From: an uncultured Bacteroides sp.
GTDB lineage: Bacteria; Bacteroidota; Bacteroidia; Bacteroidales; Bacteroidaceae
Direction: 5' to 3'
NCBI RefSeq assembly: GCF_947632445.1
Contig: NZ_CANRPM010000011.1
Location: 1,593-65,592, forward strand
DNA: 64,000 nucleotides
The notes under the pieces are model-generated. The model saw only the letters and a list, made by a program, of their open reading frames with translations. It had not been told where the DNA came from and ran no database searches. Position 1 is the stretch's first letter. Each line of letters begins with the position of its first letter. Made by a program: the position numbers and the translations under genes. Shown here in pieces: positions 26,161 to 57,622 of this stretch.

Positions 26161-27390
26161 CTATGTATGTAACCTTAGGTAACAAAGGTAGTATTTTTTT
26201 ACCTTCTTCGAGAGCAGATGGATGTTGAGCATATCCGATGCTTCGGAGATGTTCTTCGTGGTTCCGTCCTTGTAAAGGATGTCGATGCTGTCGTCGGCAG
26301 GGTTGTACATGTTCTTCTCGATACTGGGGACGGAGACGAACCAGGCGGCTTCGGCAGGCGTCACATTCAGCGCGGTGGCTATTTCTGCCACTAATTCCTG
26401 CTTGCGTTTCTCGGTGGCCGGCTTGGTGGAGATTTCTACCTTGAACAGGCGGCGGTTCACCATGCCCGTGCTCAGTGTGGAGAGCACCTTGTCGGGATGG
26501 TCGCTCCATACCTTGAGAGCTGTCCAGATGTCGTTGTCGTCCAAACGGATGAAGTTTTCCAGACAGGCCGGGTCGTTGTAGAAGCGGCTGCGGTCTACAT
26601 CGTTATAGAGGAAGAAGCGCAGGGCGGGCGAGGCAAAGAGGTTTTCGCCTGCGGCAGCCAGCTCCTTGGCACGTAGCAGGGCGGCGATAAGCATCCGCTC
26701 GTAGGCTACGGAAACCTTGTGCAGATACACTTGCCAGTACATCAGACGGCGGGCCATGAGGAAGTTCTCGATGGAATAGATGCCTTTTTCCTCGACGACA
26801 AGGTGGTCGTCCTTCACGTCGAGCATCTTGATGATGCGTGCCGAGCCGATGTTTCCCTCGGTGACGCCCGTGTAGAAGCTGTCACGCCGCAGGTAGTCCA
26901 GACGATCCATGTCCAGCTGTCCGCTGACCAGCTGGTGAAGGAAGCGCTTGGGATACTCGTCTTTGAATATCTGAATGGCCAGTGTGAGTTGTCCGTTCAT
27001 CTCGCGGTTGATGCGCTCCATCAGCAGCAGGGAGATGTCTTCGTGGGAGACGCCGCGCACGATGGTATCTTCCAGCACGTGCGAGAAAGGACCGTGCCCG
27101 ATGTCGTGCATCAGAATGGCCGCTTTGACGGCTTCGGCCTCGCTGTCGAAGATGAAGTTTCCCTTGGCCGTCAGGTGCTGGATGGCTTCAGTCATCAGGT
27201 AGAAAGCGCCGAGCGAGTGCTGGAAGCGCGTATGTTGGGCGCCCGGATAAACCACAGACGACAAGCCCAACTGGCGGATGCGCGTCAGACGTTGCAGCAG
27301 GGGATGGCGCACAAGATCGTAGAGCAGCCCCTTGGGAATATTGATAAATCCGAAGACAGGGTCGTTGATGATTTTACGTTCGTAACTCAT
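26161..27390 (-). CDS. HD-domain phosphohydrolase
   Basis: DPVFG, RLTRIRQLG, HTRFQHSLG, HDIGHGPFSH, DMDRLDYLRRDS, MYWQVYLHK. Confidence 0.93.
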   Translation of the reverse strand: MSYERKIINDPVFGFINIPKGLLYDLVRHPLLQRLTRIRQLGLSSVVYPGAQHTRFQHSLGAFYLMTEAIQHLTAKGNFIFDSEAEAVKAAILMHDIGHGPFSHVLEDTIVRGVSHEDISLLLMERINREMNGQLTLAIQIFKDEYPKRFLHQLVSGQLDMDRLDYLRRDSFYTGVTEGNIGSARIIKMLDVKDDHLVVEEKGIYSIENFLMARRLMYWQVYLHKVSVAYERMLIAALLRAKELAAAGENLFASPALRFFLYNDVDRSRFYNDPACLENFIRLDDNDIWTALKVWSDHPDKVLSTLSTGMVNRRLFKVEISTKPATEKRKQELVAEIATALNVTPAEAAWFVSVPSIEKNMYNPADDSIDILYKDGTTKNISEASDMLNIHLLSKKVKKYYLCYLRLHT

Positions 27391-27468
27391 GGATTCTGTT
27401 ATTAGGGTAGGGATGTGATGAGACGGTGGGCCGATGGGGCCCGTTCATCGTTTTTGTACTCCCGGTTC

Positions 27469-27580
27469 AAAGCCTTTGAACTGTCAGTTCACTCCGTTTG
27501 AACCGTCAGTTTAAAGGCTTTATACTCTCAGTTTATCACGCTTAAACTGAGAGTTTATTTTTATTAAACTGAAATAAACT
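27469..27580. repeat. Five 22-bp degenerate tandem units, each with an AACTG/CAGTT palindrome
   Basis: Cores tttgaactgtcagttc (27475), tttgaaccgtcagttt (27497), tttatactctcagttt (27519), cttaaactgagagttt (27541), attaaactgaaa (27563). Confidence 0.75.
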
Positions 27581-27593
27581 GTTTGCCGGCTGA

Positions 27594-28073
27594 TTACCAA
27601 TAAGTTTCCTCGACGTAGCTATCGAACTCCGGTTCGGATTTAAGTCCCGCCCAACGGAAGACGTTGGCTATGGCCTGTTGCTCCTTGGGCGTGATAAGCC
27701 GTTCGCCCTTCCGGCTTTGGAAGTAATAGCTTCGGCAGGAGAAGCAGGCCATGATACGGCGCCTGATGTCCGCCTCCAGCCGGTGGGGGATTTCGTCGAA
27801 CAATTTCGTCATGCCTTGTGCAAAGCGCACGGGCATGCTGTCGCGGTAGTATTCGCATCCGTCCTGAGCATGGGCAATGCAGGCAGGGTGCACGATGCGG
27901 ATGGGGTTTGGCTTGTCCGAAGTTTCCGTTACCGGCAGACGGCGGTAGGCAATGGCACGCAGGCAGTGCGGGGCACGGGGACAAGCCTCGTCGGCAGCAG
28001 GGCAGCAGATATAGTCTTTGGGCATGTTGTCCGTCTTTCCTGAGACGGTGGCAACTTTGTTTTCGTGGTTCAT
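27594..28073 (-). CDS. Cys-rich hypothetical protein (DUF6078-like)
   Basis: CCPAADEACPRAPHCLR, GCEYYRD..PVRFAQGM, YFQSRKGERLITPKEQ..I..VFR..G....PEFD.Y. Confidence 0.7.
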   Translation of the reverse strand: MNHENKVATVSGKTDNMPKDYICCPAADEACPRAPHCLRAIAYRRLPVTETSDKPNPIRIVHPACIAHAQDGCEYYRDSMPVRFAQGMTKLFDEIPHRLEADIRRRIMACFSCRSYYFQSRKGERLITPKEQQAIANVFRWAGLKSEPEFDSYVEETYW

Positions 28074-28284
28074 GGTTGAATGTCTTTATTAGTTTACGCC
28101 CAAAGGTAGGGGATTTTAAGGAGATAAACAAGGAAGAGCGGGGAAGAGTGTGGAAGAAACCGGTGCATCTATCCGTAAATTCCGTCATTTTTTCCGTAAT
28201 CCATATACATGCCGGAGGCGTCTGCCGCTGTATCTTTGCATCAAAAACTCGAAAGCTTTTTCGCCATGAAGACCTGCTTGTTGG

Positions 28285-28482
28285 TTGCTGTCTTCCTGTC
28301 ACGGACTTTGGATGGCAGCGGCTTGCGCGTCGGACTTCGGATTGGATAGCGGTCTCACCGTGACCGGACAGCCCGTTCCGTATACCCACCTCAGCAAGAT
28401 CGACAACATGTCGGAAAGTGAATCGAAAGCCGCTTTAGGTGAGGAAGATGTCACCGTGACCCTCGCTTTGGGCGATGAATAG
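28285..28482 (+). pseudogene. Possible C-terminal remnant of a cyclophilin-like-fold protein
   Basis: YTHLSKIDNMSESESKAALGEEDVTVTLAL resembles the C-terminus of such proteins; follows a TATCTTTG promoter (28231-28238). Weak. Confidence 0.3.
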
Positions 28483-28485
28483 TGT

Positions 28486-29595
28486 ATGAACTATAATGAT
28501 AAGATAGAAGACATGAACAGAAAGAAAACCATCCCCTGCCTGCTGGCAGCCCTCTTGCTGACAGGCCTCACCGCCCCAAGTGCGGCAAACGGGACAGATA
28601 AGTATAACCCTTTAAACCAGCATGATATGGAAAAATTGGAACTAACGAATGAATGGGACAAAGTGTTCCCGCAGAGCGACAAAGTAAATCATAGTAAAGT
28701 GACCTTCCACAACCGCTACGGCGTTACGCTTGCGGCCGATCTCTACGTGCCGAAGAACGTTACGGGCAAGTTGGCAGCCATTGCTGTAAGCGGACCGTTC
28801 GGCGCTGTCAAGGAGCAGTCGTCCGGTCTCTATGCACAGACGCTGGCCGAACGCGGCTTCCTGACCATAGCTTTCGACCCTTCTTTTACAGGCGAGAGCG
28901 GAGGCCAGCCCCGCTACGTGGCTTCACCTGACATCAATACGGAAGACTTCTGTGCAGCAGTGGACTATCTGTCTACCCGCGAAGACGTGGATCCCAAACG
29001 CATCGGCATTCTCGGCATCTGCGGTTGGGGAGGCATGGCGCTGAACGCCGCTGCCATCGACACACGCATCAAGGCCACAGTCACCTCGACGATGTACGAC
29101 ATGAGCCGCGTGAATGCCAACGGTTACTTCGACTCAATGGATGCCGACCAGCGTTACGAACTCCGCTGTCAGCTCAACGTCCAACGTACAGTCGATTACC
29201 GCAACGGCTCTTATGAACGGGCCGGCGGTGTGGTAGATCCGCTGCCTGCCGACGCTCCCCAATTCGTAAAAGACTATTATGCCTACTACAAGACGCCGCG
29301 CGGTTACCACACGCGTTCGCTCAACTCGAACGACGGATGGAACAAGACATCTGCGTTGTCTTTCCTTAACATGCCCATCCTGACCTATAGCAACGAGATA
29401 CGCAGTGCCGTCCTGATGATTCACGGCGAGAAAGCCCATTCGTGCTACTTCAGCCGGGATGCGTTCCAGAAGCTGACGGGCGACAACAAGGAACTGCTTA
29501 TCATCCCCGGCGCCAATCATACCGACCTGTATGACAACCTGAAAGTGATTCCTTTCGACAAGATTGAAAGTTTCTTCAAGAAATATCTGAAGTAA
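28486..29595 (+). CDS. Secreted alpha/beta hydrolase (COG1073-like)
   Basis: VTFHNRYGVTLAADLY, GPFGAVKEQSSGLYA, GICGWGG, IHGEKAHS, GANHTDLYD. Confidence 0.9.
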   Translation: MNYNDKIEDMNRKKTIPCLLAALLLTGLTAPSAANGTDKYNPLNQHDMEKLELTNEWDKVFPQSDKVNHSKVTFHNRYGVTLAADLYVPKNVTGKLAAIAVSGPFGAVKEQSSGLYAQTLAERGFLTIAFDPSFTGESGGQPRYVASPDINTEDFCAAVDYLSTREDVDPKRIGILGICGWGGMALNAAAIDTRIKATVTSTMYDMSRVNANGYFDSMDADQRYELRCQLNVQRTVDYRNGSYERAGGVVDPLPADAPQFVKDYYAYYKTPRGYHTRSLNSNDGWNKTSALSFLNMPILTYSNEIRSAVLMIHGEKAHSCYFSRDAFQKLTGDNKELLIIPGANHTDLYDNLKVIPFDKIESFFKKYLK

Positions 29596-29642
29596 GCGGG
29601 GAAACTATTCGGGCGTGGATGACGCGGATTTCATGTTATAGC

Positions 29643-29702
29643 AGACAAATTGACAAAGCTGCAAGTTTAAAGATTTCTTTTTGTGGCTTTGTCAATTCGT
29701 CT
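29643..29702. terminator. Long inverted repeat between convergent genes
   Basis: AGACAAATTGACAAAGC ... GCTTTGTCAATTCGTCT (17 bp, one mismatch). Confidence 0.6.
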
Positions 29703-29715
29703 GTTTTTCCACTCC

Positions 29716-31491
29716 TTAATTGATGCAATCTATCACATCTTCAGCTTTTGCGATATTTAATATTTGGAACACACCGATGGTATTGTCCATGTGCGATGAC
29801 TGCAAAGGCTGTATATACATGTTTCTCAAATGATAACAGTCATCAAATTCTGTTTTGTCATATTTTATGGTATGACAGTCGGATGCCAAAAAGAAATTTA
29901 TCTGTTGATTTATGTCCTGTCCATCCATCCGTGCATATCCAATGAAAGGACGGGACTTCTGAATTAATGGTTCAAACAGTTCGGAAAATGATTCTGGCGT
30001 TGATAGATCAATGATAAAGGGATTGTTCTTATCCCAAGTTAGTTTTTTATAATTATTGAAGAATGACTCATCCATATATTGGGTAATGATATCGTCGAGT
30101 TCTTTAATATCATCACGGTGTTGCCATTCATCCATAATATCACTCAATATATCCTGCAGTTCGAATGTATCTACTTTGCTTTTGTCTATCAAAGTTTCGC
30201 TTTTCGACGACTCATCCCAGACCTTACCTTTCAATGCTATGTTGGCATTCTTTAATGCTATTTCGGCCGATTCTACTTGAGAGCATATTTCCTGATAGTT
30301 TTCTAACTCTCCGAATAGTTTACGAAGCCGGGTATAATCTTTATCCAGTTGTTCTTTAAGACTGGTTATATCTTTCTTTTGAGGATCGGATTGAGGCATA
30401 GTGTGTGGTTGTCTTTTGAATTTAGGCCAAAAAGACAATAGACATCCATTTTTTCTTTTCTTATTTGTATCAGAAGGGTGGGTGGTGTTCGATAACGTTT
30501 TCTGCTCGATGTATTCACGCATTGCATTATATGCTTCATCTGTTCGCAGATACTGTTCGTATCTTTCGGTTTCCTGTATCAACTCCTCGAAATGATCATT
30601 CCTCTTTTTTGTAAAAGGAACGTTAAGATAAACTTTTAATATTTCTTCGATACTTGCCCCTTGCATTTGTTCGCCATACCGTCGCAGGTTAATCACGGCT
30701 TCTTTTAATTCCTTCTGCCAGCAGTCTGGTTGTTCTTCCAAAGGCTTCTTATAGTCGTAAAGTGTATTGAAATAGTCATTGGATTTATCTTTCAAATGGC
30801 GTTGGTCGTTAAGATTACTTTCTATAGCTGTTTTCTTCAGTTTCAACTTTAGATACTCGCAAATATCCACTGCCTGATATTGTCGTTCGGCATAGCCTAC
30901 TGAGGTTATCTTATCCCTAAATGCACCTGATATCTTATAGTTGGAGTCCGCAGAACTCATTAAGCAGAATAGGCGTGAAAGCATGCGGGCTAATCGGTGG
31001 GAATTCATGTTGGTCGCCTTGTCCTCGAAATCTTGATTGTTTAGGTAAAGGATATTTGTTTGGATATGATCACTTTCCTGCATCTCCAATAATTGCTTTG
31101 CCACTGTGCATTCCGGCCTTATAGTGACATCGTCATACTTGTCTAAATCGTAAGCCAATGCTACAATAACAACTCGGATACTGGTTTGTTTCAGACCGTT
31201 GGTTCTTTCCAGTGCTTGATAAACCGTGATTATACTATCCGCATCCTCTTCAGAAAGTAACTCAGATAACATAAAAATGTTTAAGGAACTATTATTCTCG
31301 GATTTGTAGCGGTGCTGGGCAATCAAGTTTGATAAGTCGTCTTTCAATCTCGTTTGGTCAGAGAAATGGTCGGAGTCGATATTCCAACTTGATGACAGAG
31401 TTTCTCCTGCCGGATGAAACTTTTCGATTTCATCCAGCAGGGATTTAACAGATTCCTTTATTCCAAGAATAATGAAATTTGATGAAGCCAT
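29716..31491 (-). CDS. Hypothetical protein; probable inactive paralogue of the upstream tubulin-like protein
   Basis: 591 aa; co-linear strand motifs with the 919-aa protein (IDSD vs IDTD, ILYLNN vs AYIINN, TSVGYAE vs ASMGSAE) but no glycine loops. Manual alignment only. Confidence 0.6.
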   Translation of the reverse strand: MASSNFIILGIKESVKSLLDEIEKFHPAGETLSSSWNIDSDHFSDQTRLKDDLSNLIAQHRYKSENNSSLNIFMLSELLSEEDADSIITVYQALERTNGLKQTSIRVVIVALAYDLDKYDDVTIRPECTVAKQLLEMQESDHIQTNILYLNNQDFEDKATNMNSHRLARMLSRLFCLMSSADSNYKISGAFRDKITSVGYAERQYQAVDICEYLKLKLKKTAIESNLNDQRHLKDKSNDYFNTLYDYKKPLEEQPDCWQKELKEAVINLRRYGEQMQGASIEEILKVYLNVPFTKKRNDHFEELIQETERYEQYLRTDEAYNAMREYIEQKTLSNTTHPSDTNKKRKNGCLLSFWPKFKRQPHTMPQSDPQKKDITSLKEQLDKDYTRLRKLFGELENYQEICSQVESAEIALKNANIALKGKVWDESSKSETLIDKSKVDTFELQDILSDIMDEWQHRDDIKELDDIITQYMDESFFNNYKKLTWDKNNPFIIDLSTPESFSELFEPLIQKSRPFIGYARMDGQDINQQINFFLASDCHTIKYDKTEFDDCYHLRNMYIQPLQSSHMDNTIGVFQILNIAKAEDVIDCIN

Positions 31492-31510
31492 AACCCATAG
31501 ATCTTAAAAA

Positions 31511-34270
31511 TTACAATCCGTCGGCTACCAAATTGATTTCATCCATAACCAACTCTATCAAGGCTTGGTAGTGTAGTCTGTCTTCCAGGTGTCTTTTTTC
31601 TTCGTCAGGCAACTGTGAATAGTCGTTTTGATAGTTGTCGGAGTTCACTTCGTTCAATACCTCTTTTACATGTTCCAATCCTTTTCTTTTAGTTATCAAG
31701 TCTATCTCTCTCTTGACATCCTGATATAATTCCATGTTGACATAGTTTAAGTATGCCACTTCGCGTGTATCTCCAATGTCAAGACGGTAATGGTTGATGG
31801 GATTTCCTCTCTGACGAGACCTAATCCAATATTGTTGGCTTCCGTCATCGTAATGAATCAAACCGAAAATGAAGCCCTTCACCCAAAATTCTATTTTATT
31901 AGGTCCAACATCGGGCGGTGTGGGCATTAAATTAAACTTTTCACTTCTCATACGTAAGTTCCATTGTTCATCAATGTATCCGGCCAATGAGGTTTGAATG
32001 TATTCACGCTGATAGATTGTCGTGTTACCCACTGCATATATGGGAGCGCAACAACTCATAATCAGGATTAAAATTCTATTCTTTTCTTCTGTTGAAATGT
32101 AAGTAGGTTCGTGGCCGCTTTCAACAAACAAATTGGCCAATTTCGTTTCTTTAAAAATGTTTCTGTTGGCATCTGCACATCCAACCAAAATAAATTTGAC
32201 CAACGGTAGCGGCTGATTTACATACCCTTGTGTGTTTATTTTCCAAAGAGGGGATGCCATTACTTTTACCTTTTCGATGTAACTATTTGCTTTTTCAGGT
32301 GTTTGTTCGTAAACTTTCTGAAGATACTCATTGATGGTTACGGCAAAGGCTGCGCGTACTTCTTGGGTTTCGTTTGCCCAACGGCGCATTACTTCAAATA
32401 ATTCTAGATTATTCAAGCCAATCAGACTTTTTATATCTTGGTGTTTCAAAAAATCCAAAATGTCCTGTGCAGTGGCTTCACGTGTGCGATTTACTTCTTC
32501 GCCATGAATGTAGACTTGGAAATTTAAATCACGTTGTGCATCCCTTTGTATTTTCAAATTGGCAGAATCCATGTCTTTTGCAACTTGCTGGAGTGTGTTT
32601 TCAAGTGCATTTATTTTATTTTGCCACACCCCTATGCTTTGTCTTAAGTGGGCATACACTTGAATAGCATAGCTTCGGCGTATTGATTCTCGAATAGCTT
32701 CCACGTGCATACGGATTTCTTCGCTTAAGGCTTCTGCCGCATCCTTGTCTATGGGACTGAATAGTGCGGGTAATCCGCTATTTTTTATTGCATTGACCGC
32801 TTCGTTCCAAGGCTGATGATTATTCACTCTCTCGTCAAATTGTTTCTTCTCATTGTCCATTTCCTCTTCACAGGTTTGTATGGCAGTTAACAAGCTTGAC
32901 AAGAAATCGGCAATATCTCCTACGCCATTTTGTGTGTTAATGTTATTGGTAATGTATTTATCTAACTCCTTGTCAACTGTGCATATCTTGTTGTCATACG
33001 TTTTTCTAATAGTAGACTCGGTTGCAGCCTTTATGTAATTGTCAATCTGATTTTGGTCACTGTCTTTACTTAGATCAATGGGAGAGAATGGGCAAATAGG
33101 ATCCAAGAGGCTGTCTATGAGCATGTCCGCATTGTGTTCTTGTACAGCCACATTGGGGTCTGACATCCATGTCAAAGCATTTTGTAAGCCGTTATTATTT
33201 TTCTTGCAAAGTTCATCGCATGCGCTCTTTATCATGGAATATCCGATGTAATCGCCCACTGCCTGAGAATCGTATATTAGTTCTGCACTACCCATAGACG
33301 CCGTCCATGCTTTTTTATTGAGTACTTCGAAAGCTTTCATATGCTTTGCCACATTGTCCATTGGCGATGTGATACCTTGTCCCAATTGGTTGCTGGGCAA
33401 AAACATGCTTCGGCCTATCGAATCGGTTAATTCATTGATACTTTGAAAGCAGACGCCTTTTTCGTTCGTGTTATTGATGATATAGGCATATCTAATATTG
33501 GGGTCCAATGTATTAATCCTGTCGAACCCGAAATCTAAAGGATTTTGATTATCGGCCGGTAAATGGAACAGGTAGTCCAGTTCCTGTAAGAAACCGAATG
33601 CGTTGTTATGTACATTGAACGACGGTACGCCAGGAGCCATTCTGCGAAAGACGTCGGGCATCACAATCCACGGATAGATACGGTAATTAGTACCTAATGC
33701 CTGAGCCGCATTTGACACCAACATCAGGATATCAAGCATCATACCACTTCCTGTTCCACCGGCTGTACTGCCTACTACATTGATAATGGTAGGCCATTCG
33801 TTCCCATTGCTGTCATAGTCATATTGAAAACGATAATCAACAGGTAGAGGTGCGGCAATATTGCTTATCTTTTGTTGGACTTGATTTTGGATATGTTTGG
33901 CGTTGAATCGTGCGATGAATCGACCATTAGAACGTACCTGCCCTGCTCCATCAGCTGATATGGTTTTCAGCGAGTCTGTATTAACCGAGGGAATCCACGA
34001 ATACAAATTACGATTGTTTGTGTAGACTTGCAGAGCCATAGGTACGGAACAAACCAACAACTCATTATGATCTAATGCTACCTTGCCATGCTTTGCCGAA
34101 ATTATAAATTTGTTCTTCGCCTGCCCATCGGTATCAATAGCTAAGAAGCCTATCATCTTGGGGATTTCTCCATAGGTATCCAAAAAACATTGTTTGGTGC
34201 GGAGAATTGCCATTACACCGGTGCCACCTAATCCGATGTAGAGTGTCTTTGTAATTTTTGTTGTTGCCAT
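31511..34270 (-). CDS. Tubulin/FtsZ-like GTPase with long helical C-terminal extension (Tubulin_2 type)
   Basis: KTLYIGLGGTG, FLAIDTD, GAGQVRSNGR, tubulin signature VGSTAGGTGSG, NAF..L.EL; 919 aa. Confidence 0.88.
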   Translation of the reverse strand: MATTKITKTLYIGLGGTGVMAILRTKQCFLDTYGEIPKMIGFLAIDTDGQAKNKFIISAKHGKVALDHNELLVCSVPMALQVYTNNRNLYSWIPSVNTDSLKTISADGAGQVRSNGRFIARFNAKHIQNQVQQKISNIAAPLPVDYRFQYDYDSNGNEWPTIINVVGSTAGGTGSGMMLDILMLVSNAAQALGTNYRIYPWIVMPDVFRRMAPGVPSFNVHNNAFGFLQELDYLFHLPADNQNPLDFGFDRINTLDPNIRYAYIINNTNEKGVCFQSINELTDSIGRSMFLPSNQLGQGITSPMDNVAKHMKAFEVLNKKAWTASMGSAELIYDSQAVGDYIGYSMIKSACDELCKKNNNGLQNALTWMSDPNVAVQEHNADMLIDSLLDPICPFSPIDLSKDSDQNQIDNYIKAATESTIRKTYDNKICTVDKELDKYITNNINTQNGVGDIADFLSSLLTAIQTCEEEMDNEKKQFDERVNNHQPWNEAVNAIKNSGLPALFSPIDKDAAEALSEEIRMHVEAIRESIRRSYAIQVYAHLRQSIGVWQNKINALENTLQQVAKDMDSANLKIQRDAQRDLNFQVYIHGEEVNRTREATAQDILDFLKHQDIKSLIGLNNLELFEVMRRWANETQEVRAAFAVTINEYLQKVYEQTPEKANSYIEKVKVMASPLWKINTQGYVNQPLPLVKFILVGCADANRNIFKETKLANLFVESGHEPTYISTEEKNRILILIMSCCAPIYAVGNTTIYQREYIQTSLAGYIDEQWNLRMRSEKFNLMPTPPDVGPNKIEFWVKGFIFGLIHYDDGSQQYWIRSRQRGNPINHYRLDIGDTREVAYLNYVNMELYQDVKREIDLITKRKGLEHVKEVLNEVNSDNYQNDYSQLPDEEKRHLEDRLHYQALIELVMDEINLVADGL

Positions 34271-34289
34271 AATGATACGGATTAATAAT

Positions 34290-35195
34290 TTATTGTAATA
34301 GGATTGTCAATTTGTTTCCATCTCTCTGTTGAATGTTTATCCTGGTGTAGATATTTGCCGACGTAGGGGAAATTTGATAGGCGGAACTATTGTATCGAAC
34401 GATTATCTTCTTTCCATTCGCCTTGGGTATGAGCGTAATGGGGGATGTGAAATTTAGGTCGTTCTTGTAAAGTACCTTTCCAATCCAAATGCGGTTCCAG
34501 ATGGATTGCTTTTTTATATGTTGTCCTAATATTACTTTTCTGCAACCTCCCATGCGCAGTGTTGTTATTGGATTATGGGGAATAATAAGATTCTTTACTA
34601 CAGTATGACGGAATGTTGGATAGACTATTCTTCTCAAAAATACAAACCAAATGAGAATACTACAAAGAATAATGGCATATAAAATGAGTACCGTCTTTTT
34701 TAATGGATTCATCCGTTTGGTAAATGTAAACTGCCATTTGAAAATCTTTGTTTCGTTTCCGTTACTTATCTCAGTATCGTTTATTCGGTCAAGGTTATGG
34801 CTTGTGATAGTCAGATAACCACCTTTTGTTCCTTCCTTAGCTTGTGGAATGCAACGCATTTTCAATATATTTTCCGTATAGTCGCTTTTTATATCAAAGT
34901 GTGGATATTGTAATTTCATACCGTCAATATAGATTTCAAACAACTGCATATCAAGTGGCTGATCTTTTTCGTCGGTGAAATATAGGGTGGCATGACTGCT
35001 TGCCTCCTTGGCTTCCTTGTTGAATTGATATCGGATAGTTCTCTCGATAAAAGTTGTATCAGCATCTGTCCACCAAAATGAACTTGTATAGACTGACTTT
35101 CCCAATGGGGTAGATGGTACCGTTTCTTGGAAAGAACAGGAAAATACAAGACTAAGTAATAGTGCTACGCTTGTTAAACTGATGAAGTTTTTCAT
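34290..35195 (-). CDS. Lipoprotein-signal protein with an additional internal TM helix
   Basis: MKNF...LLLSLVFS-C lipobox; TM VLILYAIILCSILIWFVFL followed by RR; basic beta-rich C-terminal domain. Confidence 0.75.
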   Translation of the reverse strand: MKNFISLTSVALLLSLVFSCSFQETVPSTPLGKSVYTSSFWWTDADTTFIERTIRYQFNKEAKEASSHATLYFTDEKDQPLDMQLFEIYIDGMKLQYPHFDIKSDYTENILKMRCIPQAKEGTKGGYLTITSHNLDRINDTEISNGNETKIFKWQFTFTKRMNPLKKTVLILYAIILCSILIWFVFLRRIVYPTFRHTVVKNLIIPHNPITTLRMGGCRKVILGQHIKKQSIWNRIWIGKVLYKNDLNFTSPITLIPKANGKKIIVRYNSSAYQISPTSANIYTRINIQQRDGNKLTILLQ

Positions 35196-36238
35196 TCGAT
35201 AGATATTTTGAGAGTTCTTTCTTTTTTGTTAATGCAATGTATGGTGAGTTGTTCCGGGGTTATGAATGTGTATGGGCTTCCCCCTTCGTAATTAACCCTT
35301 AGATGAAGATCGAATTGTTCGGGAATATTCTGTGTATTCTTCAAACATAAAGAGAAGTGTATCTTTTCTTGATAGATGTCCATTGGAGCTGCCTGTAAAG
35401 TACAATATGGATTTTCTTCCAGATTTAAGTTAATCTTACCTTTAATATCCCGATAACTGCCAGACAGGGGAATGGTTAGATCCTTGTCGTCTCGCAAGTT
35501 ATAGGCTACTTGAGTCGGCATATTGCATATTTGGATAGATACATTGGCATCGGGTACTACCCAAAAGTTGGTTTGTTTGTCTATTGCTTTGCGGATATAA
35601 GGGACATCTGCAGCAGGATGTACTAAAATATAGAAACCATAAGAATATTGACCGGGATTTTGTGACTTTCGGTTCCAATCATTCAGTTCGGCCTGTAAGT
35701 CGCCAACTTCGTTGACGCCGTCGGTAAAGAGGAATAAGTAATTCACATATCCGTCCCGACACATGTCGTGATATTTGCGGATAGCATCCACAAGGTTCGT
35801 TTTATTGTCACCTACCGGTTTATAATGGAAGTTAGTAATGAAGTCTTTTAGTTGTGATTTCCCTTCAGGAGTGGCTTTTACACATACTGGGTCAAGAGTA
35901 CGCGTATAAAACGGTATGAGTATGATTTCGTTCATCGCATCATCTTCTATGTTTTCAATACTTTCTATCAACTTATATTTCAAAGATCTCCAGAGTCCAT
36001 TACCTGAAGATATAAAGGGAAGCGGGGAGTTATCCAAGTCTTTTTCTCCTTGTCTCTGGGGTAACAGTGATCCGCTTACATCCCAAAGAAAAATTCTGCG
36101 TTCGTTCAGTTGGGTATAAGCTACAGTGGGCATCAAAAAGACGAAAAAGAAGAATAACAGGATGGAGAAAGAATGTGATGTGTTGAAACATTCTCTTTCT
36201 TGAGATCCTTTAAGATGATGATATACGCGGTTTGTCAT
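35192..36238 (-). CDS. Exported von Willebrand factor A domain protein
   Basis: Hydrophobic signal; MIDAS elements IFLWDVSGS, KTN, LFLFTDG; beta-rich C-terminal domain; stop overlaps next start. Confidence 0.85.
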   Translation of the reverse strand: MTNRVYHHLKGSQERECFNTSHSFSILLFFFFVFLMPTVAYTQLNERRIFLWDVSGSLLPQRQGEKDLDNSPLPFISSGNGLWRSLKYKLIESIENIEDDAMNEIILIPFYTRTLDPVCVKATPEGKSQLKDFITNFHYKPVGDNKTNLVDAIRKYHDMCRDGYVNYLFLFTDGVNEVGDLQAELNDWNRKSQNPGQYSYGFYILVHPAADVPYIRKAIDKQTNFWVVPDANVSIQICNMPTQVAYNLRDDKDLTIPLSGSYRDIKGKINLNLEENPYCTLQAAPMDIYQEKIHFSLCLKNTQNIPEQFDLHLRVNYEGGSPYTFITPEQLTIHCINKKERTLKISIE

Positions 36239-36312
36239 GGCATCATTTATATGTCAATCAGCAGACTCCCCACACTGAATTATGTTATGGAATATTTCAG
36301 GTTGCCATATAC

Positions 36313-36530
36313 AAAAAAGCGCGGGAATCTGTACTTGTTACTCGTCCCACGTATCAAGGCCTTCGCATTGCCCACTCAGTCAAAACGAGCAACGCAGAAG
36401 CCCACGCAGATATGTATAACAACTTCCTGCACATCTTCTATAAAGTACAGGAAGGGTATAAACATATCCCGCAGACATCTACTGTTGCTTTGTTTTAGAC
36501 TGAGTTCAAAGTTTGCGAAGTTTTGATACG
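36313..36530 (-). ncRNA. Structured 5' leader (long nested hairpin with poly-U tail) upstream of the vWA/tubulin operon
   Basis: Nested IRs: CGTATCAA..CTTCGCA / TTGCGAAG..TTGATACG; ACTCAGTC..AAAAC.AGCAAC / GTTGCT..GTTTTAGACTGAGT; GATATGT / ACATATC; CTTCCTG / CAGGAAG; tail TCCCGCGCTTTTTTGTAT on minus strand. Confidence 0.6.
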
Positions 36531-36575
36531 TCAAAAACAAAACGTAAAGTAAACGTCTTTTTTATATATGTTTGT

Positions 36576-36636
36576 TTCCATACATTCGCAACTATAGTTG
36601 AGAACTTGTATGGAACGCAGTGACAAATGTATGGAA
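36576..36636. promoter_or_regulatory. 40-bp palindrome plus third half-site TGTATGGAA
   Basis: TTCCATACA-TTCGCAACT-AT-AGTTGAGAA-CT-TGTATGGAA (36576-36615); TGTATGGAA again at 36628-36636. Confidence 0.45.
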
Positions 36637-36788
36637 TAATTTTCTAATAGTAATGAGTTTTATAAAAAATGTAGATGCCTTTTTCAGATTTTTCCTTTTT
36701 ATGTGTCTATATTTGTATTTCTTTTGACTGGATAAGGGATTTTTTCAGGAACTATTGATGTGAACGGAAAACGTGTTTATATAAAAAT

Positions 36789-36874
36789 GGCACGCAGATA
36801 GCGCAAATGAATCAGATGACCGCAGATTAAATATATCTGTGCAAATTTTGTTCCATCTGTGTTATCTGTGTGCC
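36789..36874. repeat. REP-like palindrome of the same family as 7765-7838
   Basis: GGCACGCAGATA ... TATCTGTGTGCC with internal CAGAT/ATCTG repeats. Confidence 0.65.
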
Positions 36875-36909
36875 AATATCTTTTTCTCAGCACATAACCC
36901 ATCTGTGGG

Positions 36910-37734
36910 CTACAGAATAGCTTTCAGCTGCCCGGCCATCTGTGTCTGCACTTCCTGTGCGGCCTTGCGGCTGGCGGCGGCGAAGCTTTCCGTCTTATCC
37001 ACGTAGATGATACCTCGGCTGGAGTTGACAATGAGGCCGCACTCCTTTGTCATGCCATACTTGCAGACTTCTTCCAGCGAGCCACCCTGTGCACCTACGC
37101 CCGGTACGAGCAGGAAGTGGTTGGGTACAATCTTACGGATGTCCTCGAACATGCGGCCTTGTGTGGCACCCACTACGTACATCATGTTCTCGTCGTTGGC
37201 CCATTCCTGTGATTTGCGGAGTACTTTCTCGAAGAGGCGTTCGCCATCTTTATCTTCTGTCAGCTGGAAGTCATGCGAACCCTTGTTGCTGTTCAGTGCC
37301 AGCAGGATGACCCACTTGCCTTCGTAGGTGAGGAACGGTGTTACGCTGTCTTCACCCATGTAGGGAGCCACAGTCACGGAGTCGATGTTCAGTTCCTCGA
37401 AGAAGGTGCGGGCATACATAGCCGACGTGTTGCCAATATCGCCGCGCTTGGCGTCGGCAATGATAAATTGGTCGGGATAGTTCTGTTTGATGTAGTTCAC
37501 CGTCTTCTCGAAGGCCATCCATCCCTTCACGCCCATGCTCTCGTAGAAAGCCAGGTTGGGCTTGTAGGCGATACATAGGTCCTGCGTTGCGTCGATGATA
37601 GCCTTATTGAAAGCGAAGATAGGATCTTCTTCTTTCAGTAGATGTTCGGGAATTTTCTTGATGTCCGTATCGAGTCCTACGCAGAGGAACGATTGTTTGC
37701 GCTTGATGTTTTCAAAGAGTTGTTGCTTGTTCAT
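36910..37734 (-). CDS. pyrF: Orotidine-5'-phosphate decarboxylase
   Basis: [55 protein letters not shown]. Confidence 0.97.
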
Positions 37735-48553: not shown

Positions 48554-50074
48554 TCATTTTGGCACACTCCCATCATCCGACGCTTTCACCCAGTACCCGT
48601 TGCCGTACCGCGTATGCACCCTTCTTCCCATCTGCGCCAGCAGGTGACTGAACGCCGTGCACGAACAGCCCCTTAACGCTGCCGGGTTCTTCTTCTTCAA
48701 GGCGGCGTAGATGTCTGCCGCAGACATCAGATGCGCACCCTCCTCACTTGCTTCGGCAAACTCGAAGCAGCTGCCAATGAGTTCCTCGGCGGGCTTCACG
48801 CGGTAGAACGGACGGTTCGCCGCCTGGATTTCCGCCTCCTCCGCCTTGCTGAACCAGCAGCGTCCGCCGTTATTCAGCTCGTGCAGGAGCTGGGCGTACA
48901 GTTGGGCATGGTCGAGGGGAGTCGTACAGTCGATGGCCCGCTCCACTTCCACACAGATAAAACGTCGGCTGCCCGACAGGTCGGTCAGCAGGTCACGGCG
49001 GTTGCTCGTGCCGATGAACGAGGCGATTCTTGGCAAAGCCTCCGCCGAACGGCGGTAGGCACGGCGCACGCGCAGGTCTTCCATCTGCATCAGGTTCTTC
49101 AGCTGCGGCAGGCGGGAGGCAGGCAGGCGGTCGAACTCGTCGAGGTTGATCAAACCGTAGGACGCCAACTTGTTTTCCGCCGATGAGGCGTTGGTCAGGT
49201 CGAAGCTCTCGGTGAAATAGTCGCGCAACTCTTGGGGGAGCAGCATCCGGCAGAAGGTGGACTTGCCCAATCCCTGCGTGGTGCTGATGAGGAGCGGGGC
49301 CACACTGTTGGCACGACGGCCCCGGTCGCCCGTGCCTGTCCACTGGGCGGTGACGGCCAGCATCCAGCGGTGGAAGGAACGTATCCAAACCCCGTTGCCG
49401 GAGACCCGCTTTGCCAGGTCTTCCACCCGGTCCTTGCCGTCCCATTCAGGCAGGTGCTTGAAGTACAGGTCGAACGGATGGTAAGCCCTTACGTGGTCGG
49501 ATTCCACGTATCGCTTCACGTCCCTGTCCCAGCAATCCACTCCGTCCTCCATAGCACCGAGGGCGATGCCGTTCAGGACACGGCTATCCACGGGCGTATA
49601 AAGAAGGCGGTGCGAATCGTCCGCAGCCTCCGTGTCGAGGCGGGCGCACTCCGTGCGCTCCGTCAGCAGGTTGTAGCGGAAGGCGTAGTGCAGCTTCAGG
49701 TAGCGGGTCAGGCGCTGCATGATCCGGCGTTGCCTGGAGTCCTTCCGGTCGACGGCCTCTTCAGCTTGCTCCTTGTCTTTGTCTTTCAACGTATCCGTCT
49801 CCGGTTCGGCCTCTTCCTGCTCTATCCATTCCGTCACCTCGTTCCGCCCGTTCAGGCTGAAGATGCGCTTGTCGGGGCGGGGTGTCTGGGGCGTCCAGGT
49901 CAGTTGGACGGTGAACTCGCCGTCGCCCGTGACGAGGAAGACTTCGCCGCCCGGCAGGCGGCCGCAGTATTCGTTGAGGTTCGACAGAAGTTCCCTGTAG
50001 GAGTTGGCGGGAGCCGGCAGGGGCGCTTCCCGGCGGGAAGTGAACAGATCTCTTAGCTGGTAAATCAGGTTCAT
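48554..50074 (-). CDS. VirE/VapE-like P-loop ATPase with winged-helix-like C-terminus
   Basis: YAFRYNLLT, YHPF..YF..LP.WDG.DR, RWML, Walker A QGLGKSTFC, Walker B LINLDEFD, RRAY, SFIGTSN, TDLSGSRRF. Confidence 0.88.
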   Translation of the reverse strand: MNLIYQLRDLFTSRREAPLPAPANSYRELLSNLNEYCGRLPGGEVFLVTGDGEFTVQLTWTPQTPRPDKRIFSLNGRNEVTEWIEQEEAEPETDTLKDKDKEQAEEAVDRKDSRQRRIMQRLTRYLKLHYAFRYNLLTERTECARLDTEAADDSHRLLYTPVDSRVLNGIALGAMEDGVDCWDRDVKRYVESDHVRAYHPFDLYFKHLPEWDGKDRVEDLAKRVSGNGVWIRSFHRWMLAVTAQWTGTGDRGRRANSVAPLLISTTQGLGKSTFCRMLLPQELRDYFTESFDLTNASSAENKLASYGLINLDEFDRLPASRLPQLKNLMQMEDLRVRRAYRRSAEALPRIASFIGTSNRRDLLTDLSGSRRFICVEVERAIDCTTPLDHAQLYAQLLHELNNGGRCWFSKAEEAEIQAANRPFYRVKPAEELIGSCFEFAEASEEGAHLMSAADIYAALKKKNPAALRGCSCTAFSHLLAQMGRRVHTRYGNGYWVKASDDGSVPK

Positions 50075-50564
50075 AAGCGGATGCGGTTGGTTCTTATTTT
50101 TTCCTGTAAAGATACAACATTTTAAGGCCTTTGTCAAGTCCTCCGGCTGCGTCCGGGGCTGCCTTTAGCGTCTTTTATATCTTTCACCGGAAACAGGGGA
50201 TGTGCCCCGGTGAAGTTTCACCGGAACGGGCTGACTGTAAGCGGGTTGCGGTGAAAGCAGGAAACAAGCCGTTCGGGGCATCGCACACAAATGTTCTGCG
50301 GTATTCCCATTCTCCGTGAAAGAACTTTCACGCCTTCACCCCATCTTTCACACTATCTCGCTCGTTGACAGGCGTTTGCCGGCCCGTGAAACCGTGAAGG
50401 CGGAAAACGGGAAACTTTTTTTCTTGCCGCCTTGCCCGCCTTGCCCGCCTGCTTCAGCGGAATCATGTGATGCGGAAGGTCGTATTTTCTGAAGGGAAAC
50501 ATAGAGTTCCGGGCAAAAGCGGGACAGTTTCGGGAGGGAACCGGGCCGCCTTTTTCCGGGTTCC

Positions 50565-50665
50565 CATGCAGTGCTTCATGAGAAGGTAACGAAGCACTTC
50601 GTCAGGGTGCCATGCAATGCTTTGTCCGAGTGTCAGGAAGTGCTTTGTCGGCAGGCATGAAAGCA
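50565..50665. repeat. Degenerate ~23-bp periodic array upstream of virE
   Basis: Cores agtgcttc (50570), agcacttc (50593), aatgcttt (50616), agtgcttt (50639). Confidence 0.55.
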
Positions 50666-50985
50666 CGTCGTTGGCGTGCGCCTGCCGGCTTCTTCACGGA
50701 CAGAACATGGTGAAATATTGTTAGTTTGATGCGTAATGTTGACAGCTACAGAAGTTTGCCATTTCAAAATGGCTACGACATTGTTTTAACAGGAGCTTAT
50801 CCCGGACTCACATTAAATAATATTTCGATAAAATATGATAGCGTTTACTTTGATATATCAAAAGATGTGCATATTTTTGTGCATAATTGTGAATTGTGTA
50901 ACAAACAAAACACTGTAAATAATTTTAAAGAGGAAAAAGAAAGAGATATTGACATATTAAAATAAGGCGTTAGCATTTATTCTGT

Positions 50986-51135
50986 GATTCTGAAACTTCG
51001 ACACTTTCAAAAAATCACTCTACGGAATAAAGTTGATGCTCACGTGTTATACACGTGGGCTTTATTCCATATATTGAGTGATAGGTAGTCGAAGACCTCA
51101 GAATCAGTATCGGAAATAGTCCACGTTTTTTGTAT
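50986..51135 (+). ncRNA. Structured 5' leader upstream of the type III R-M operon
   Basis: Nested IRs GATTCTGA..CTTCGAC / GTCGAAG..TCAGAATC; ATCACTC / GAGTGAT; GGAATAAAG / CTTTATTCC; CTCACGTGT-TAT-ACACGTGGG; tail GTCCACGTTTTTTGTAT. Confidence 0.6.
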
Positions 51136-51179
51136 CTGTACTTATCGGGATAAATGCTATCGCGCAATAAATCCCGACC

Positions 51180-53783: not shown

Positions 53784-53812
53784 TTTATGTAAGATTAAAC
53801 GATTATACCATT

Positions 53813-55861: not shown

Positions 55862-55998
55862 AGCAATGAACAAACAGGAAGAGAAAATGTGGGTGATAGT
55901 GACGGATTGTACTGTTCGTGGGATTATATCAACCGTTTATGGATAATATCTAAAATGTTTTTAGTATATTTGCTGTATAATAACAAAACCTGTTTATT

Positions 55999-56280
55999 AT
56001 GATAAGAAATGCCTGGACAGATGAGGAAATGATTTCAACTAATGGGATTTGTCTTTCTCCTTTGTATGACAAAGCCTTTGATAAGGGTTATATTGGCATA
56101 CGGCCGGATGATTATACGGTAATAATATCAAAAGAGTTGAAAAATTATAAAAAACACCTTTCTTATCAAAATTGCTTTGCGCCAATTGAAGATAAGCCAA
56201 TTATGCTTCCAAACAAACATAACCCCAACCCTGAATTTTTAGCATATCATATTGAGCACATATTTGTAAAACATAATTAG
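55999..56280 (+). pseudogene. HNH endonuclease with large in-frame internal deletion
   Basis: N-terminal MIRNAWTDEE fused directly to the C-terminal NGICLSPLYDKAFDKGYI...LPNKHNPNPEFLAYHIEHIF; TATATTTG promoter retained. Confidence 0.7.
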
Positions 56281-56440
56281 TTAATAATCATTTGCGCCAA
56301 ATAAGGGTTGTTGCGATGATAAGTTGTTATTAGCGATGCAGATAAACAATGGTCTTGTCAAGATTGTTGAGAAGGCAGAAGATAGGGTTATGTTATACCA
56401 TAATTGATTCTTAATTTAATTAGTCGCAATGGAGTAGCGT

Positions 56441-57622
56441 ATGAATGAAGATAGAAAAACAATAACCGATTTTGACGAGTATATCCGCCAGGGAGAGCCG
56501 GAGAAAAGGGAAAAGGCGTATATCTGGCAGACTGCCATAGGTCTGCAGGCTGTTGATGGGCTTACGACTTCTGATTACCTCAATGAAACAGCCAAAAGGC
56601 ACATTGAGGGAGAAATCGACATTGATGAAGTTCGTGAACTCATAAAGACTTATTACCGGTCAAAGTCCAACCGGGAGCCTGATGATGATGAGAAACGAGA
56701 GGCTGACGGGGTATCAGCGAATATATCCAAAATCCTGTCAAATCGTACACTGGATTTCAGTACCCAGGGATACATTGCGCTACATCGCCGAATCTTTGCC
56801 GGCATATTCAAGCATGCAGGCAGAGTTCGTGACTACAATATCACGAAAAAAGAGTGGGTGCTGGAGAATGAAACGGTAAACTATCTGAATTGGGAGGATT
56901 TGCGCAGGGCATTGGACTATGACATTGAACAGGAGCGCAATTTCAGCTATAAAGGCATTACCGCCGATGCCATGATTTCCCACATTACCCGTTTCGTATC
57001 GGGTCTTTGGCAGATTCATGCGTTTGGGGAAGGAAATACCCGCACGACGGCGGTATTCACGATTCAGTATCTCCGCTCCATTGGATTCGACATCACCAAC
57101 GATATGTTTGCAAAACACTCGTGGTACTTTCGAAATGCACTGGTGCGCGCAAACTACAAGAACGCTTTGAAAGGCATAGACTATACTCCTATTTATTTGG
57201 AGCGATTCTTCCGCAATCTGCTGTTGGGTGAAAAATGGGATTTGCGCAATCGTTATCTGCATATAAACCCGACGGAAGAATGGAAAGTTCAACCGAATCT
57301 TGCTGACAGGACAAGTGCAGGACAAGCGCAGGACAAGTGCGCGGCAATTGATGATACACTGCAGGACAAGCTGCATACAAACAACCCGAATATTGAAAAA
57401 TTGGTGCGAATGCTTGGTGAACAGCAAATGTCTGTAAAACAGATAATGGAAGCACTTGGATTGAAAGGGCGCGATAACTTCCTTAATCTCTACTTGAAGC
57501 CATCCATATCTAAAGGCTATGTACGTTTGCTGTACCCTGACTCACCGCGCCATTCACGCCAGAAATATCTTCTGACAGTCAAAGGGCTGGCACTTTATCT
57601 GGAAATAATTGGCAAACAATAA
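56441..57622 (+). CDS. Fic-family protein with VbhA-like N-terminal antitoxin domain and C-terminal HTH
   Basis: WQTAIGLQAVDGL N-domain; Fic motif HAFGEGNTRT; C-terminal LGLKGRDNF...P.SPRHSRQKY. Confidence 0.9.
   Translation: MNEDRKTITDFDEYIRQGEPEKREKAYIWQTAIGLQAVDGLTTSDYLNETAKRHIEGEIDIDEVRELIKTYYRSKSNREPDDDEKREADGVSANISKILSNRTLDFSTQGYIALHRRIFAGIFKHAGRVRDYNITKKEWVLENETVNYLNWEDLRRALDYDIEQERNFSYKGITADAMISHITRFVSGLWQIHAFGEGNTRTTAVFTIQYLRSIGFDITNDMFAKHSWYFRNALVRANYKNALKGIDYTPIYLERFFRNLLLGEKWDLRNRYLHINPTEEWKVQPNLADRTSAGQAQDKCAAIDDTLQDKLHTNNPNIEKLVRMLGEQQMSVKQIMEALGLKGRDNFLNLYLKPSISKGYVRLLYPDSPRHSRQKYLLTVKGLALYLEIIGKQ
57307..57339 (+). repeat. Three tandem 11-bp units CAGGACAAG(T/C)G inside the Fic gene
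   Basis: Units at 57307, 57318, 57329; a fourth copy at 57362. Confidence 0.85.

Follow-up and report, generated by a model that had tools for sequence, protein, structure and literature searches.

An acquired FtsZl1-vWA cassette of an uncultured Bacteroides: a candidate envelope-sensing, GTP-gated assembly

The stretch of DNA analysed here, 64,000 nucleotides from an uncultured Bacteroides sp. (assembly GCF_947632445.1, contig NZ_CANRPM010000011.1, positions 1,593-65,592; hereafter the window, to whose positions all coordinates refer), carries on its minus strand four co-oriented genes, designated A to D, which almost certainly form a horizontally acquired and self-contained FtsZl1 (Pfam Tubulin_2)-von Willebrand factor A (vWA) module of a Bacteroidota subtype. 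The cassette belongs to a catalogued kind, the function of which is experimentally unexplored. The function that we consider most likely, at a rough probability of 0.45, is that of an envelope-sensing, GTP-gated assembly which drives effectors in related loci. As far as we can tell, the present analysis adds to what was known the Rosetta-stone fusion of A to B, the recognition of D as a pseudo-tubulin at fold level, the intact peptidase sites and variable fifth genes of relatives, the proof of insertion by an empty site, and a covarying leader RNA.

The original prediction, made from the letters of the window, had described a tightly packed, AT-rich operon encoding an exported vWA protein with an intact metal-ion-dependent adhesion site (MIDAS), a lipoprotein with a transmembrane helix and a cytoplasmic tail, a protein with the GTP-binding loops IGLGGTG and AGGTGSG followed by a long helical extension, and a degenerate paralogue of the latter. 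The layout proved exact by open reading frame (ORF) coordinates, with a 4-bp overlap of A and B and 19 bp between B and C as well as between C and D [Table 1], and the G+C content is 0.37-0.43 over the 30-37 kb region of the window versus ~0.50-0.55 on both sides. What had been said of the products of A, B and C was borne out as described below; the claim on D stood in part. Compared with a diverged relative (L106) whose proteins are 72-85% identical to those of the window, the ratio of nonsynonymous to synonymous substitution rates (dN/dS) was 0.09 for A, 0.14 for B, 0.08 for C and 0.11 for D, with dS greater than 1, which indicates purifying selection on each of them. Given these ratios and the conservation of the gene order in more than 80 other loci, A to D are real genes.

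The product of gene C is predicted to be a cytoplasmic tubulin-fold GTPase whose GTP loops are intact. It matched Pfam PF13809 (Tubulin_2) with E=1e-43 and 150.4 bits (cut-off 27) over profile positions 1-354 of 356, and a word-based search returned 493 homologues of ~920 residues at 36-42% identity, mostly from Bacteroidales, which are labelled "tubulin-like domain-containing protein" at NCBI. Among 20 homologues, the loop residues G13, G15, G16, T17, G18, G171-G174 and G176 were invariant, as was the T3-like GAGQVRSNG; D305-N306 is a candidate T7 equivalent. The AlphaFold model of C (predicted local distance difference test score, pLDDT, 83.8) retrieved from the PDB with Foldseek only phage TubZ, gamma-tubulin, CetZ, FtsZ and tubulins (E ~2e-4, probability 1.0, template modelling (TM) score by target length 0.35-0.51 over ~330-370 columns). 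Sequence searches for PDB relatives of C yielded none, either with the single sequence or with a profile. In Pfam, the window protein lacks a PF00091 match and any FtsZ_C or Tubulin_C domain, and some homologues show faint PF00091 matches.

The product of gene D is likely a nucleotide-dead, tubulin-like partner that shares, at fold level only, the three-part architecture modelled for C. The GGTG and GGTGSG nucleotide loops are absent from D and from the consensus of its family, and D had no match in Pfam, NCBIfam or PADLOC. Its AlphaFold model (pLDDT 82.6, predicted TM-score 0.73), built from 18 sequences, was compared with the PDB by Foldseek, and the top 50 matches all belonged to the tubulin superfamily (tubulins, CetZ, TubZ, BtubB), with E-values of 2e-3 to 2e-2 and TM-scores of 0.26-0.36 over ~280 columns. 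C and, more weakly, D thus matched tubulin-superfamily structures only. Homologues of D were difficult to gather: word-based search found two, even with a 23-sequence profile, and exhaustive search found 21. The most conserved motif of D, S-x-G-x-A-E-x-x-Y at residues 197-205, aligns with residues 325-333 of C, which are invariant. That C and D are paralogues by sequence was rejected, however, as BLASTP between them was not significant, full-length hhalign paired D499-589 with C655-753 at a probability of 44%, a weak match, and hhalign of the N-terminal domains failed as well. Of the "degenerate paralogue" originally proposed, the tubulin-like fold and the loss of the GTP motifs hence stood, the former by model, and sequence similarity to C did not; since the sequence comparisons are not significant, paralogy is claimed here at fold level only. 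Unlike most of its relatives, the window D has neither a peptidase domain nor a transmembrane segment.

The MIDAS of A is complete as judged from its sequence. An alignment of 50 family members shows no variation at D53, S57, T147 or T172-D173-G174, and only Ser or Thr at position 55; this conservation, together with the hydrophobic N-terminal segment of A, agrees with the predicted exported vWA protein. The window A itself matched Pfam VWA below threshold (E=0.08, 13.6 bits against a cut-off of 23.8), and 14 of the 50 family members matched it, the best with E=3e-8. As to B, the signal peptide and its cysteine are kept in 32 of 35 split B homologues and are followed by a single transmembrane helix (residues 168-187) and a 114-residue tail, in line with the bitopic lipoprotein that had been expected. 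At least 20 loci encode A and B together in one ORF of 430-640 residues. The B sequence of these fusions joins A right past the expected end of the B signal peptide, and the shortest retain of B just the transmembrane helix and the tail. Because one polypeptide serves in so many relatives, A and B may be regarded as the two halves of a single transmembrane receptor with its vWA domain in the periplasm; and because A is fused in relatives to an inner-membrane bitopic protein, it would face the periplasm and not the cell surface. In loci of the transglutaminase type, an extra gene of ~270 codons similar to A or B lies between the fused A-B gene and C.

The cassette recurs well outside the window, as a co-occurrence check of the predicted operon showed. 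The 84 loci examined come from one scan of GTDB species representatives combined with exact-protein look-ups; they are mostly from Bacteroidales (Segatella copri, B. fragilis, Muribaculaceae, Prevotella, Alistipes), with some from Flavobacteriales such as Myroides and Aestuariibaculum. The order A/B-C-D is conserved in them, B adjoining C in 82 of 84. A large gene (688-1204 codons) directly follows C in all 78 loci with enough downstream sequence, and jackhmmer ties it to D in 62 of these 78; the window D, at 591 residues, is the shortest form seen. Three long forms that were scanned (D forms of 1065-1204 residues) matched Pfam Peptidase_C1 at ~1e-19, with the papain Gln, Cys, His and Asn-Ser-Trp residues intact and one or two transmembrane segments (a transmembrane hairpin) after them. 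By a strict motif test, papain-like D proteins occur in at least 33 non-redundant loci; a C-terminal transglutaminase-like core (Transglut_core) was found in five D forms, and in ~28 of 75 non-redundant loci D lacks an enzymatic domain, as it does in the window. In 48 of the 78 loci, D is followed by a fifth gene that is translationally coupled to it and whose product varies among TerD, peptidases, nucleases, ion channels and a transglutaminase [Table 1]; in Flavobacteriia, the gene past D is the vWA gene itself. A trio of vWA, tubulin-like and 686-residue-protein genes was also found on megaplasmid pMESIL01 of Allomeiothermus silvanus (L105; NC_014213.1, 155604-172012), flanked by two identical transposase genes of the insertion sequence family IS701 in an arrangement that looks like a composite transposon, and beside brxL and a helicase gene of the bacteriophage exclusion (BREX) type and a WYL-domain gene. 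The first two genes of this trio match the A and C profiles. The 686-residue product was rejected as a D homologue for want of a match to the hidden Markov model of the D family.

The patchy acquisition that had been suspected was confirmed by comparison with close Bacteroides genomes. The genes purM-prfA-pyrF-HD-lpxD-lpxC form one unbroken run in CP083677.1, CP084680.1 and a third assembly. The two breakpoints lie 30 bp apart in the reference L102, and the window has positions 27383-36921 in place of this 30-bp spacer; thus, 9.5 kb was inserted between pyrF and the HD-domain gene. Besides a DUF6078 gene and a gene for a secreted alpha/beta hydrolase, both of normal G+C content, the insertion consists of the AT-rich four-gene cassette and its leader. 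Other strains of the lineage carry, between the DUF6078 and hydrolase genes, a SusC/SusD/fucosidase polysaccharide utilization locus, which marks the pyrF-HD junction as a variable hotspot. The housekeeping proteins of the window, which is rabbit-gut metagenome DNA, are nearest to B. uniformis within Bacteroides. All 16 contigs with an identical PyrF hold the cassette, and the four ORFs are intact and identical or near-identical in at least 16 contigs of the lineage; C falls into a 90% cluster of 15 members, versus 3,500-5,500 for PrfA and GlnS. Elsewhere, the cassette occupies unrelated sites, its G+C content usually being lower than that of its flanks (57 of 72 loci). No cassette was found in phages, and those on plasmids were confined to three Thermaceae megaplasmids, on which grounds carriage on mobile elements was rejected. 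One relative adjoins Gabija-like, CHAT and Fic genes.

The operon is preceded by a structured element. A 265-nucleotide leader folds into a long interrupted hairpin with a minimum free energy (MFE) of -114.6 kcal/mol (z=-8.3). The block of ~280 nucleotides upstream of A is 92% identical to that of L106 although coding dS exceeds 1, and BLASTN detected it before cassettes whose C proteins share just 26-38% identity. RNAalifold on 12 sequences gave 42 pairs, 20 of them compensatory, against 10.3+/-2.1 in shuffles (0 of 500), and 93.4% of the alignment cells were paired compared with 34-43% in slid controls. Since G-U pairs exceed A-C mismatches (56 versus 10), the RNA is encoded on the operon strand. 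Rfam 15 holds no family matching the leader. Its specificity to the cassette was rejected: in a metagenome scan, the 24-base core pattern was found at at least 120 loci before unrelated genes, and two of the 120 listed carry the cassette. The genes that follow are diverse (BspA-type leucine-rich repeat (LRR), Big_2, NusG-like, sulfatase, DUF2971, RHS and others), a gene start lies at the modal 90-118 nucleotides past the motif in 100 of the 120 listed loci, and a Bacteroidetes -7 box (TAnnTTTG) was counted 69 times at 60-79 nucleotides upstream of the element among 113 unique loci. A sigma-70 promoter scan was also run and is uninformative for Bacteroides. The leader thus looks like a portable module of promoter plus structured RNA, and is most simply taken, we infer, for a conditional terminator or antiterminator. 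The operon would probably be transcribed from the Bacteroidetes promoter through the 265-nucleotide leader, and because the latter ends in a terminator-like hairpin, read-through into the operon is probably regulated. At the other end, D is followed by no fifth gene; next come a strong hairpin (29633-29712), with which spurious miRNA-like Rfam matches on both strands coincide, and the convergent hydrolase gene. This hairpin is probably a bidirectional terminator closing the operon. The leader had further been thought to be shared with the restriction-modification operon of the window; this claim fails, as neither BLASTN at word size 7 nor nhmmer --max (E<=50) found a copy near 50-51 kb, and nothing like the region upstream of A stands at the type III genes (51180-55861).

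That the family is known from computation only, as had been stated, agrees with the literature searched. FtsZl1 was defined, and its linkage to MIDAS-intact and often membrane-bound vWA proteins described, by Makarova and Koonin (2010, Biol Direct 5:33), who proposed membrane remodelling as the role of FtsZl1-vWA operons, a prediction only. Their supplement lists a B. caccae trio composed of BACCAC_02056 (535 residues, hypothetical), BACCAC_02057 (FtsZl1) and BACCAC_02058 (1152 residues, "cysteine protease"). The cassette resembles these operons in the N-terminal FtsZ-like GTPase domain of C with its GGGTG(S/T)G-type loops, coiled coil and helical C-terminal domain, in the adjacent gene for a MIDAS-intact, membrane-associated vWA protein, and in its patchy distribution. 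In contrast to them, it has in itself and its immediate flanks no gene for a P-loop GTPase, a Ser/Thr kinase or an OmpA-like protein, all of which are frequent and not obligatory in FtsZl1-vWA operons (Makarova and Koonin 2010); its receptor is in two genes, the window D has no peptidase, and the equivalent of D was not recognised as tubulin-like in the 2010 paper. A 2023 phylogenetic study handled Tubulin_2 proteins just as a divergent outgroup. Closest in logic are the GAP1-N2 GTPase-centric conflict systems of Firmicutes and Actinobacteria (Kaur, Burroughs, Iyer and Aravind 2020, eLife 9:e52696), which share with the cassette two tubulin-domain proteins with C-terminal coiled coils, a transmembrane-anchored vWA domain outside the cytoplasm and variable effectors on a conserved NTPase core, and for which a regulated cytoskeleton-like assembly was proposed. 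These systems are defined by GAP1, a double-OB/TRAFAC GTPase with N-terminal zinc ribbons and a component with fibronectin type III (FNIII) repeats (Kaur et al. 2020); as the GAP1/GTPase and FNIII genes are absent from A-D and their neighbours, the cassette is not a GAP1-N2 member and is similar in logic only. FtsZ, TubZ, CetZ, BtubA/B and alpha/beta-tubulin have the fold that is predicted for C and, more weakly, for D; loops T1, T3 and T4 are present in C, and the combination of an active with an inactive or non-exchanging subunit is reminiscent of alpha/beta-tubulin. C differs from the canonical tubulins by its 10-14% identity, its ~560-residue extension and its coupling to a periplasmic receptor. 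Six related loci join a vWA protein to a TerD-domain gene, as do Ter/TerY-P clusters (vWA TerY/TerF plus TerD), and the logic, a membrane-proximal stress response, is also alike; the window, however, has no TerD, TerC, kinase or phosphatase gene, and Ter systems have no tubulin-like GTPase. Finally, a transcriptome study of a Methanoculleus reports that mechanical agitation upregulates an operon in which several vWA genes accompany one for a "tubulin-like (CetZ)" protein, which may or may not be of the FtsZl1 kind (PMC12008871). Archaeal vWA-tubulin operons may respond to envelope stress.

In the mechanism that we favour, A and B would bind a periplasmic or envelope ligand in a MIDAS-dependent manner, and the signal would pass through the transmembrane helix and tail of B. 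The tail would recruit or nucleate a hetero-assembly of C and D at the inner membrane, akin to an active/inactive tubulin pair, whose state would depend on whether C has bound or hydrolysed GTP. In relatives, the assembly would control effectors, namely the papain-like or transglutaminase-like cysteine peptidase borne by D, often with a transmembrane hairpin, or the product of the coupled fifth gene; the logic would be that of an NTP-dependent stress or conflict system. No effector is recognisable in the window copy, whose output would therefore lie either in the assembly at the membrane or in some unlinked target. The coupling originally envisaged, of sensing in the periplasm to a GTP-dependent polymer in the cytoplasm, may be considered strengthened by the A-B fusions and by the effector domains of relatives. 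The logic of sensor, GTP switch and effector is favoured because relatives pair the core with intact peptidases and variable fifth genes; it also draws, by analogy, on the tubulin and vWA themes which Kaur et al. (2020) proposed to be conflict systems. The Allomeiothermus trio beside BREX genes and the relative that adjoins Gabija-like, CHAT and Fic genes speak for it as well. A bolder version, in which the cassette represents a class of immune or stress switches triggered at the envelope that had so far gone unrecognised (MIDAS receptor to GTP-dependent tubulin/pseudo-tubulin co-assembly to interchangeable effectors, be they cysteine peptidase, nuclease, ion channel or TerD), with a prokaryotic tubulin-superfamily polymer serving in signalling instead of division or segregation, and the leader a new, widespread class of Bacteroidales cis-regulatory RNA controlling read-through into many accessory operons, is speculative and, in our estimate, would hold in perhaps a minority of outcomes.

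Several findings weigh against an envelope-sensing, effector-driving assembly. The window cassette has neither an effector domain nor a fifth gene, so that this part of the logic is borrowed from relatives. The tubulin fold of D comes from one AlphaFold model, a shallow alignment and modest Foldseek E-values, and hhalign of the N-terminal domains of C and D scored 18-20, within the range of column-shuffled controls (14.9+/-2.4, maximum 20.9). Filament formation by FtsZl1 through the canonical interface is uncertain, since its T6-H7-T7 region could not be aligned (Makarova and Koonin 2010). The literature searched held no experimental work on any FtsZl1 protein and no defence assignment, and RNA runs holding the locus were looked for and none found. 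The hint at defence was also checked by genomic context and found weak: in PADLOC-DB 2.0, A, B and D had no match and C showed a weak one to LeoB in its coiled-coil region (E=0.0026); ~6 of 126 nearest neighbours of cassettes matched PADLOC, with no clear enrichment, and the Pfam census of the neighbours was heterogeneous and mostly metabolic. Both censuses of the 126 neighbours being flat, defence-island enrichment was rejected as support.

The main rival, which we regard as unlikely and yet worth serious attention, is a constitutive cytoskeleton for membrane remodelling or vesicle biogenesis, in which a polymer of C with D on the inner membrane would be tethered by A and B and would shape the membrane or bud outer-membrane vesicles, with no sensing and no effector. 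It is the role first proposed for FtsZl1-vWA operons by Makarova and Koonin, and it suits the membrane anchoring of the components, the long helical stalks, the effector-less window copy, the mostly housekeeping or metabolic neighbours and the vWA and tubulin-like operon, perhaps of another kind than FtsZl1, that is reported to be induced by agitation in a methanogen. A patchy, horizontally transferred cassette inserted at a housekeeping junction fits it poorly, however, and the intact peptidases, nucleases, TerD proteins and ion channels coupled to the core in relatives are hard to square with a purely structural role. Another rival is that the window copy is a decaying or inert remnant that has lost its peptidase, its fifth gene and its function. 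Its D is indeed the shortest form (591 versus 688-1204 residues), has no enzymatic domain and is followed by no fifth gene; yet peptidase-less D proteins also occur in ~28 of 75 non-redundant loci, the four ORFs are intact and identical or near-identical in at least 16 lineage contigs, and dN/dS values of 0.08-0.14 at dS greater than 1, relative to a diverged relative whose genes are equally long, largely refute decay, which is the least credible of the explanations considered.

Adhesins and chaperone systems often rely on vWA domains for the MIDAS-dependent binding of proteins, and the vWA protein might accordingly be an adhesin or an assembly chaperone (as at type V pilus tips or in MoxR-vWA systems) of a surface-adhesion or export apparatus for which the tubulin-like pair would supply energy or a scaffold. 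The beta-rich, Ig-like C-terminal region of A and the occurrence of the same leader before many surface-protein genes (BspA-LRR, Big_2, RHS) would suit such a machine. The cassette, however, includes no pilin, usher, secretin, type IX secretion signal or MoxR ATPase, and the fusion of A to an inner-membrane bitopic protein in relatives turns it towards the periplasm, so that we hold this proposal to be improbable. Even less probable is an accessory factor of cell division or cell shape, paralogous to FtsZ or CetZ: it would explain the tubulin/FtsZ fold and the intact GTP loops, and it is at odds with the absence of the cassette from close relatives in which the flanking genes are present, with a 90% cluster of 15 members against 3,500-5,500 for housekeeping proteins of the window, and with a highly divergent family devoid of FtsZ_C and Tubulin_C domains.

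Two further observations concern the surroundings of the cassettes. The window contains, in an AT-rich stretch at 2000-3253, a gene for an AAA_14/DUF4143 ATPase, and the same family lies beside three related cassettes; the PADLOC candidate system PDC-S01 was matched by three of the 126 cassette neighbours, probably the same AAA_14/DUF4143 proteins. Separately, the region at 48554-57622 of the window is a probable mobile or defence region [Table 1].

Table 1. Features of the cassette, its leader and its surroundings. Positions refer to the window unless preceded by one of our locus numbers (L); aa, amino acids; nt, nucleotides; (.), no strand assigned.
Feature	Position	Residues	Strand	Basis or remark
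Gene A, exported vWA protein	35192..36238		(-)	348 aa
A N-terminal signal or anchor	36113-36238	1-42	(-)	hydrophobic segment 17-35 by hydropathy
A vWA domain		~46-225	(-)	MIDAS residues
A MIDAS D53-x-S55-x-S57	36068-36082	53-57	(-)	DVSGS motif
A MIDAS T147	35798-35800	147	(-)	conserved column
A MIDAS T172-D173-G174	35717-35725	172-174	(-)	conserved column
A C-terminal beta-rich domain, Ig-like		226-348	(-)	
Gene B, lipoprotein-type bitopic protein	34290..35195		(-)	301 aa
B lipoprotein-type signal		ends at Cys20	(-)	hydropathy
B periplasmic domain, predicted		21-165	(-)	
B transmembrane helix	34635-34694	168-187	(-)	hydropathy; single, strong
B cytoplasmic tail, predicted	34293-34634	188-301	(-)	114 aa
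Gene C, predicted FtsZl1/Tubulin_2 GTPase	31511..34270		(-)	919 aa
C tubulin-fold domain	33206-34270	1-355	(-)	Pfam and model
C T1 loop GLGGTG	34217-34237	13-18 (IGLGGTG 12-18)	(-)	
C T3-like loop			(-)	GAGQVRSNG
C T4 loop AGGTGSG	33743-33763	170-176	(-)	
C helical/coiled-coil stalk, ~300 aa		~360-670	(-)	model: long helices 406-671
C C-terminal alpha/beta domain		671-919	(-)	model
Gene D, partner without nucleotide motifs	29716..31491		(-)	591 aa
D N-terminal alpha/beta domain, predicted tubulin-like fold	30757-31491	1-245	(-)	model
D helical stalk, then C-terminal alpha/beta domain			(-)	the latter weakly resembles that of C
Candidate Bacteroidetes -7 box TACATTTG (consensus TAnnTTTG)	36624..36631		(-)	~55 nt upstream of leader hairpin; kept in L106
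Structured leader RNA, 265 nt, long interrupted hairpin	36306..36570		(-)	ends 74 nt before the ATG of A
Leader invariant block GGGCAATGCGAAGGCC	36358-36373		(-)	
Leader 3' terminator-like hairpin	36320-36351		(-)	covarying
Leader U-run	36313-36318		(-)	
Strong hairpin between convergent stops of D and alpha/beta-hydrolase gene	29633..29712		(.)	MFE -36.8 kcal/mol, z=-4.55
9.5-kb insertion versus close Bacteroides genomes	27383..36921		(.)	BLASTN breakpoints 36922 and 27382
DUF6078 gene within insertion	27594-28073			G+C normal
Secreted alpha/beta hydrolase gene within insertion	28486-29595			G+C normal
VapE-like/DUF3874 primase-type gene	48554-50137			
Type III restriction Res	51180-53783			
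Type III Mod	53813-55861			
Fic-domain gene	56441-57622			
Extra ~270-aa A/B-like genes	L005:2575-3381, L006:7145-7960, L059:2083-2886			
Fifth gene, TerD	L022, L023, L024, L026, L062, L080			6 loci
Fifth gene, DA1-like zincin peptidase	L008, L016, L025, L029			4 loci
Fifth gene, non-specific endonuclease (Endonuclease_NS)	L037, L045, L082, L084			4 loci
Fifth gene, EEP nuclease	L028, L078			2 loci
Fifth gene, ion-transport channel (Ion_trans)	L039, L041			2 loci
Fifth gene, transglutaminase				1 locus

Few branches of the tubulin/FtsZ superfamily are as divergent as FtsZl1, and sixteen years after its prediction, no experimental study of it was found in the literature searched. What was a vague prediction of membrane remodelling is now a defined architecture made up of a split or fused vWA receptor, a predicted GTPase, a likely nucleotide-dead partner and, in relatives, effectors. 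Because the module is common in gut Bacteroidales and is carried by the cultivable Segatella copri, B. caccae and Myroides, genetics is feasible. The portable structured leader may be of wider relevance to how operons gained by horizontal transfer are controlled in Bacteroidales. Should the switch-and-effector reading hold, the cassette would reveal a new role for tubulin-fold proteins and, for major gut commensals, a new way of sensing the state of the envelope.

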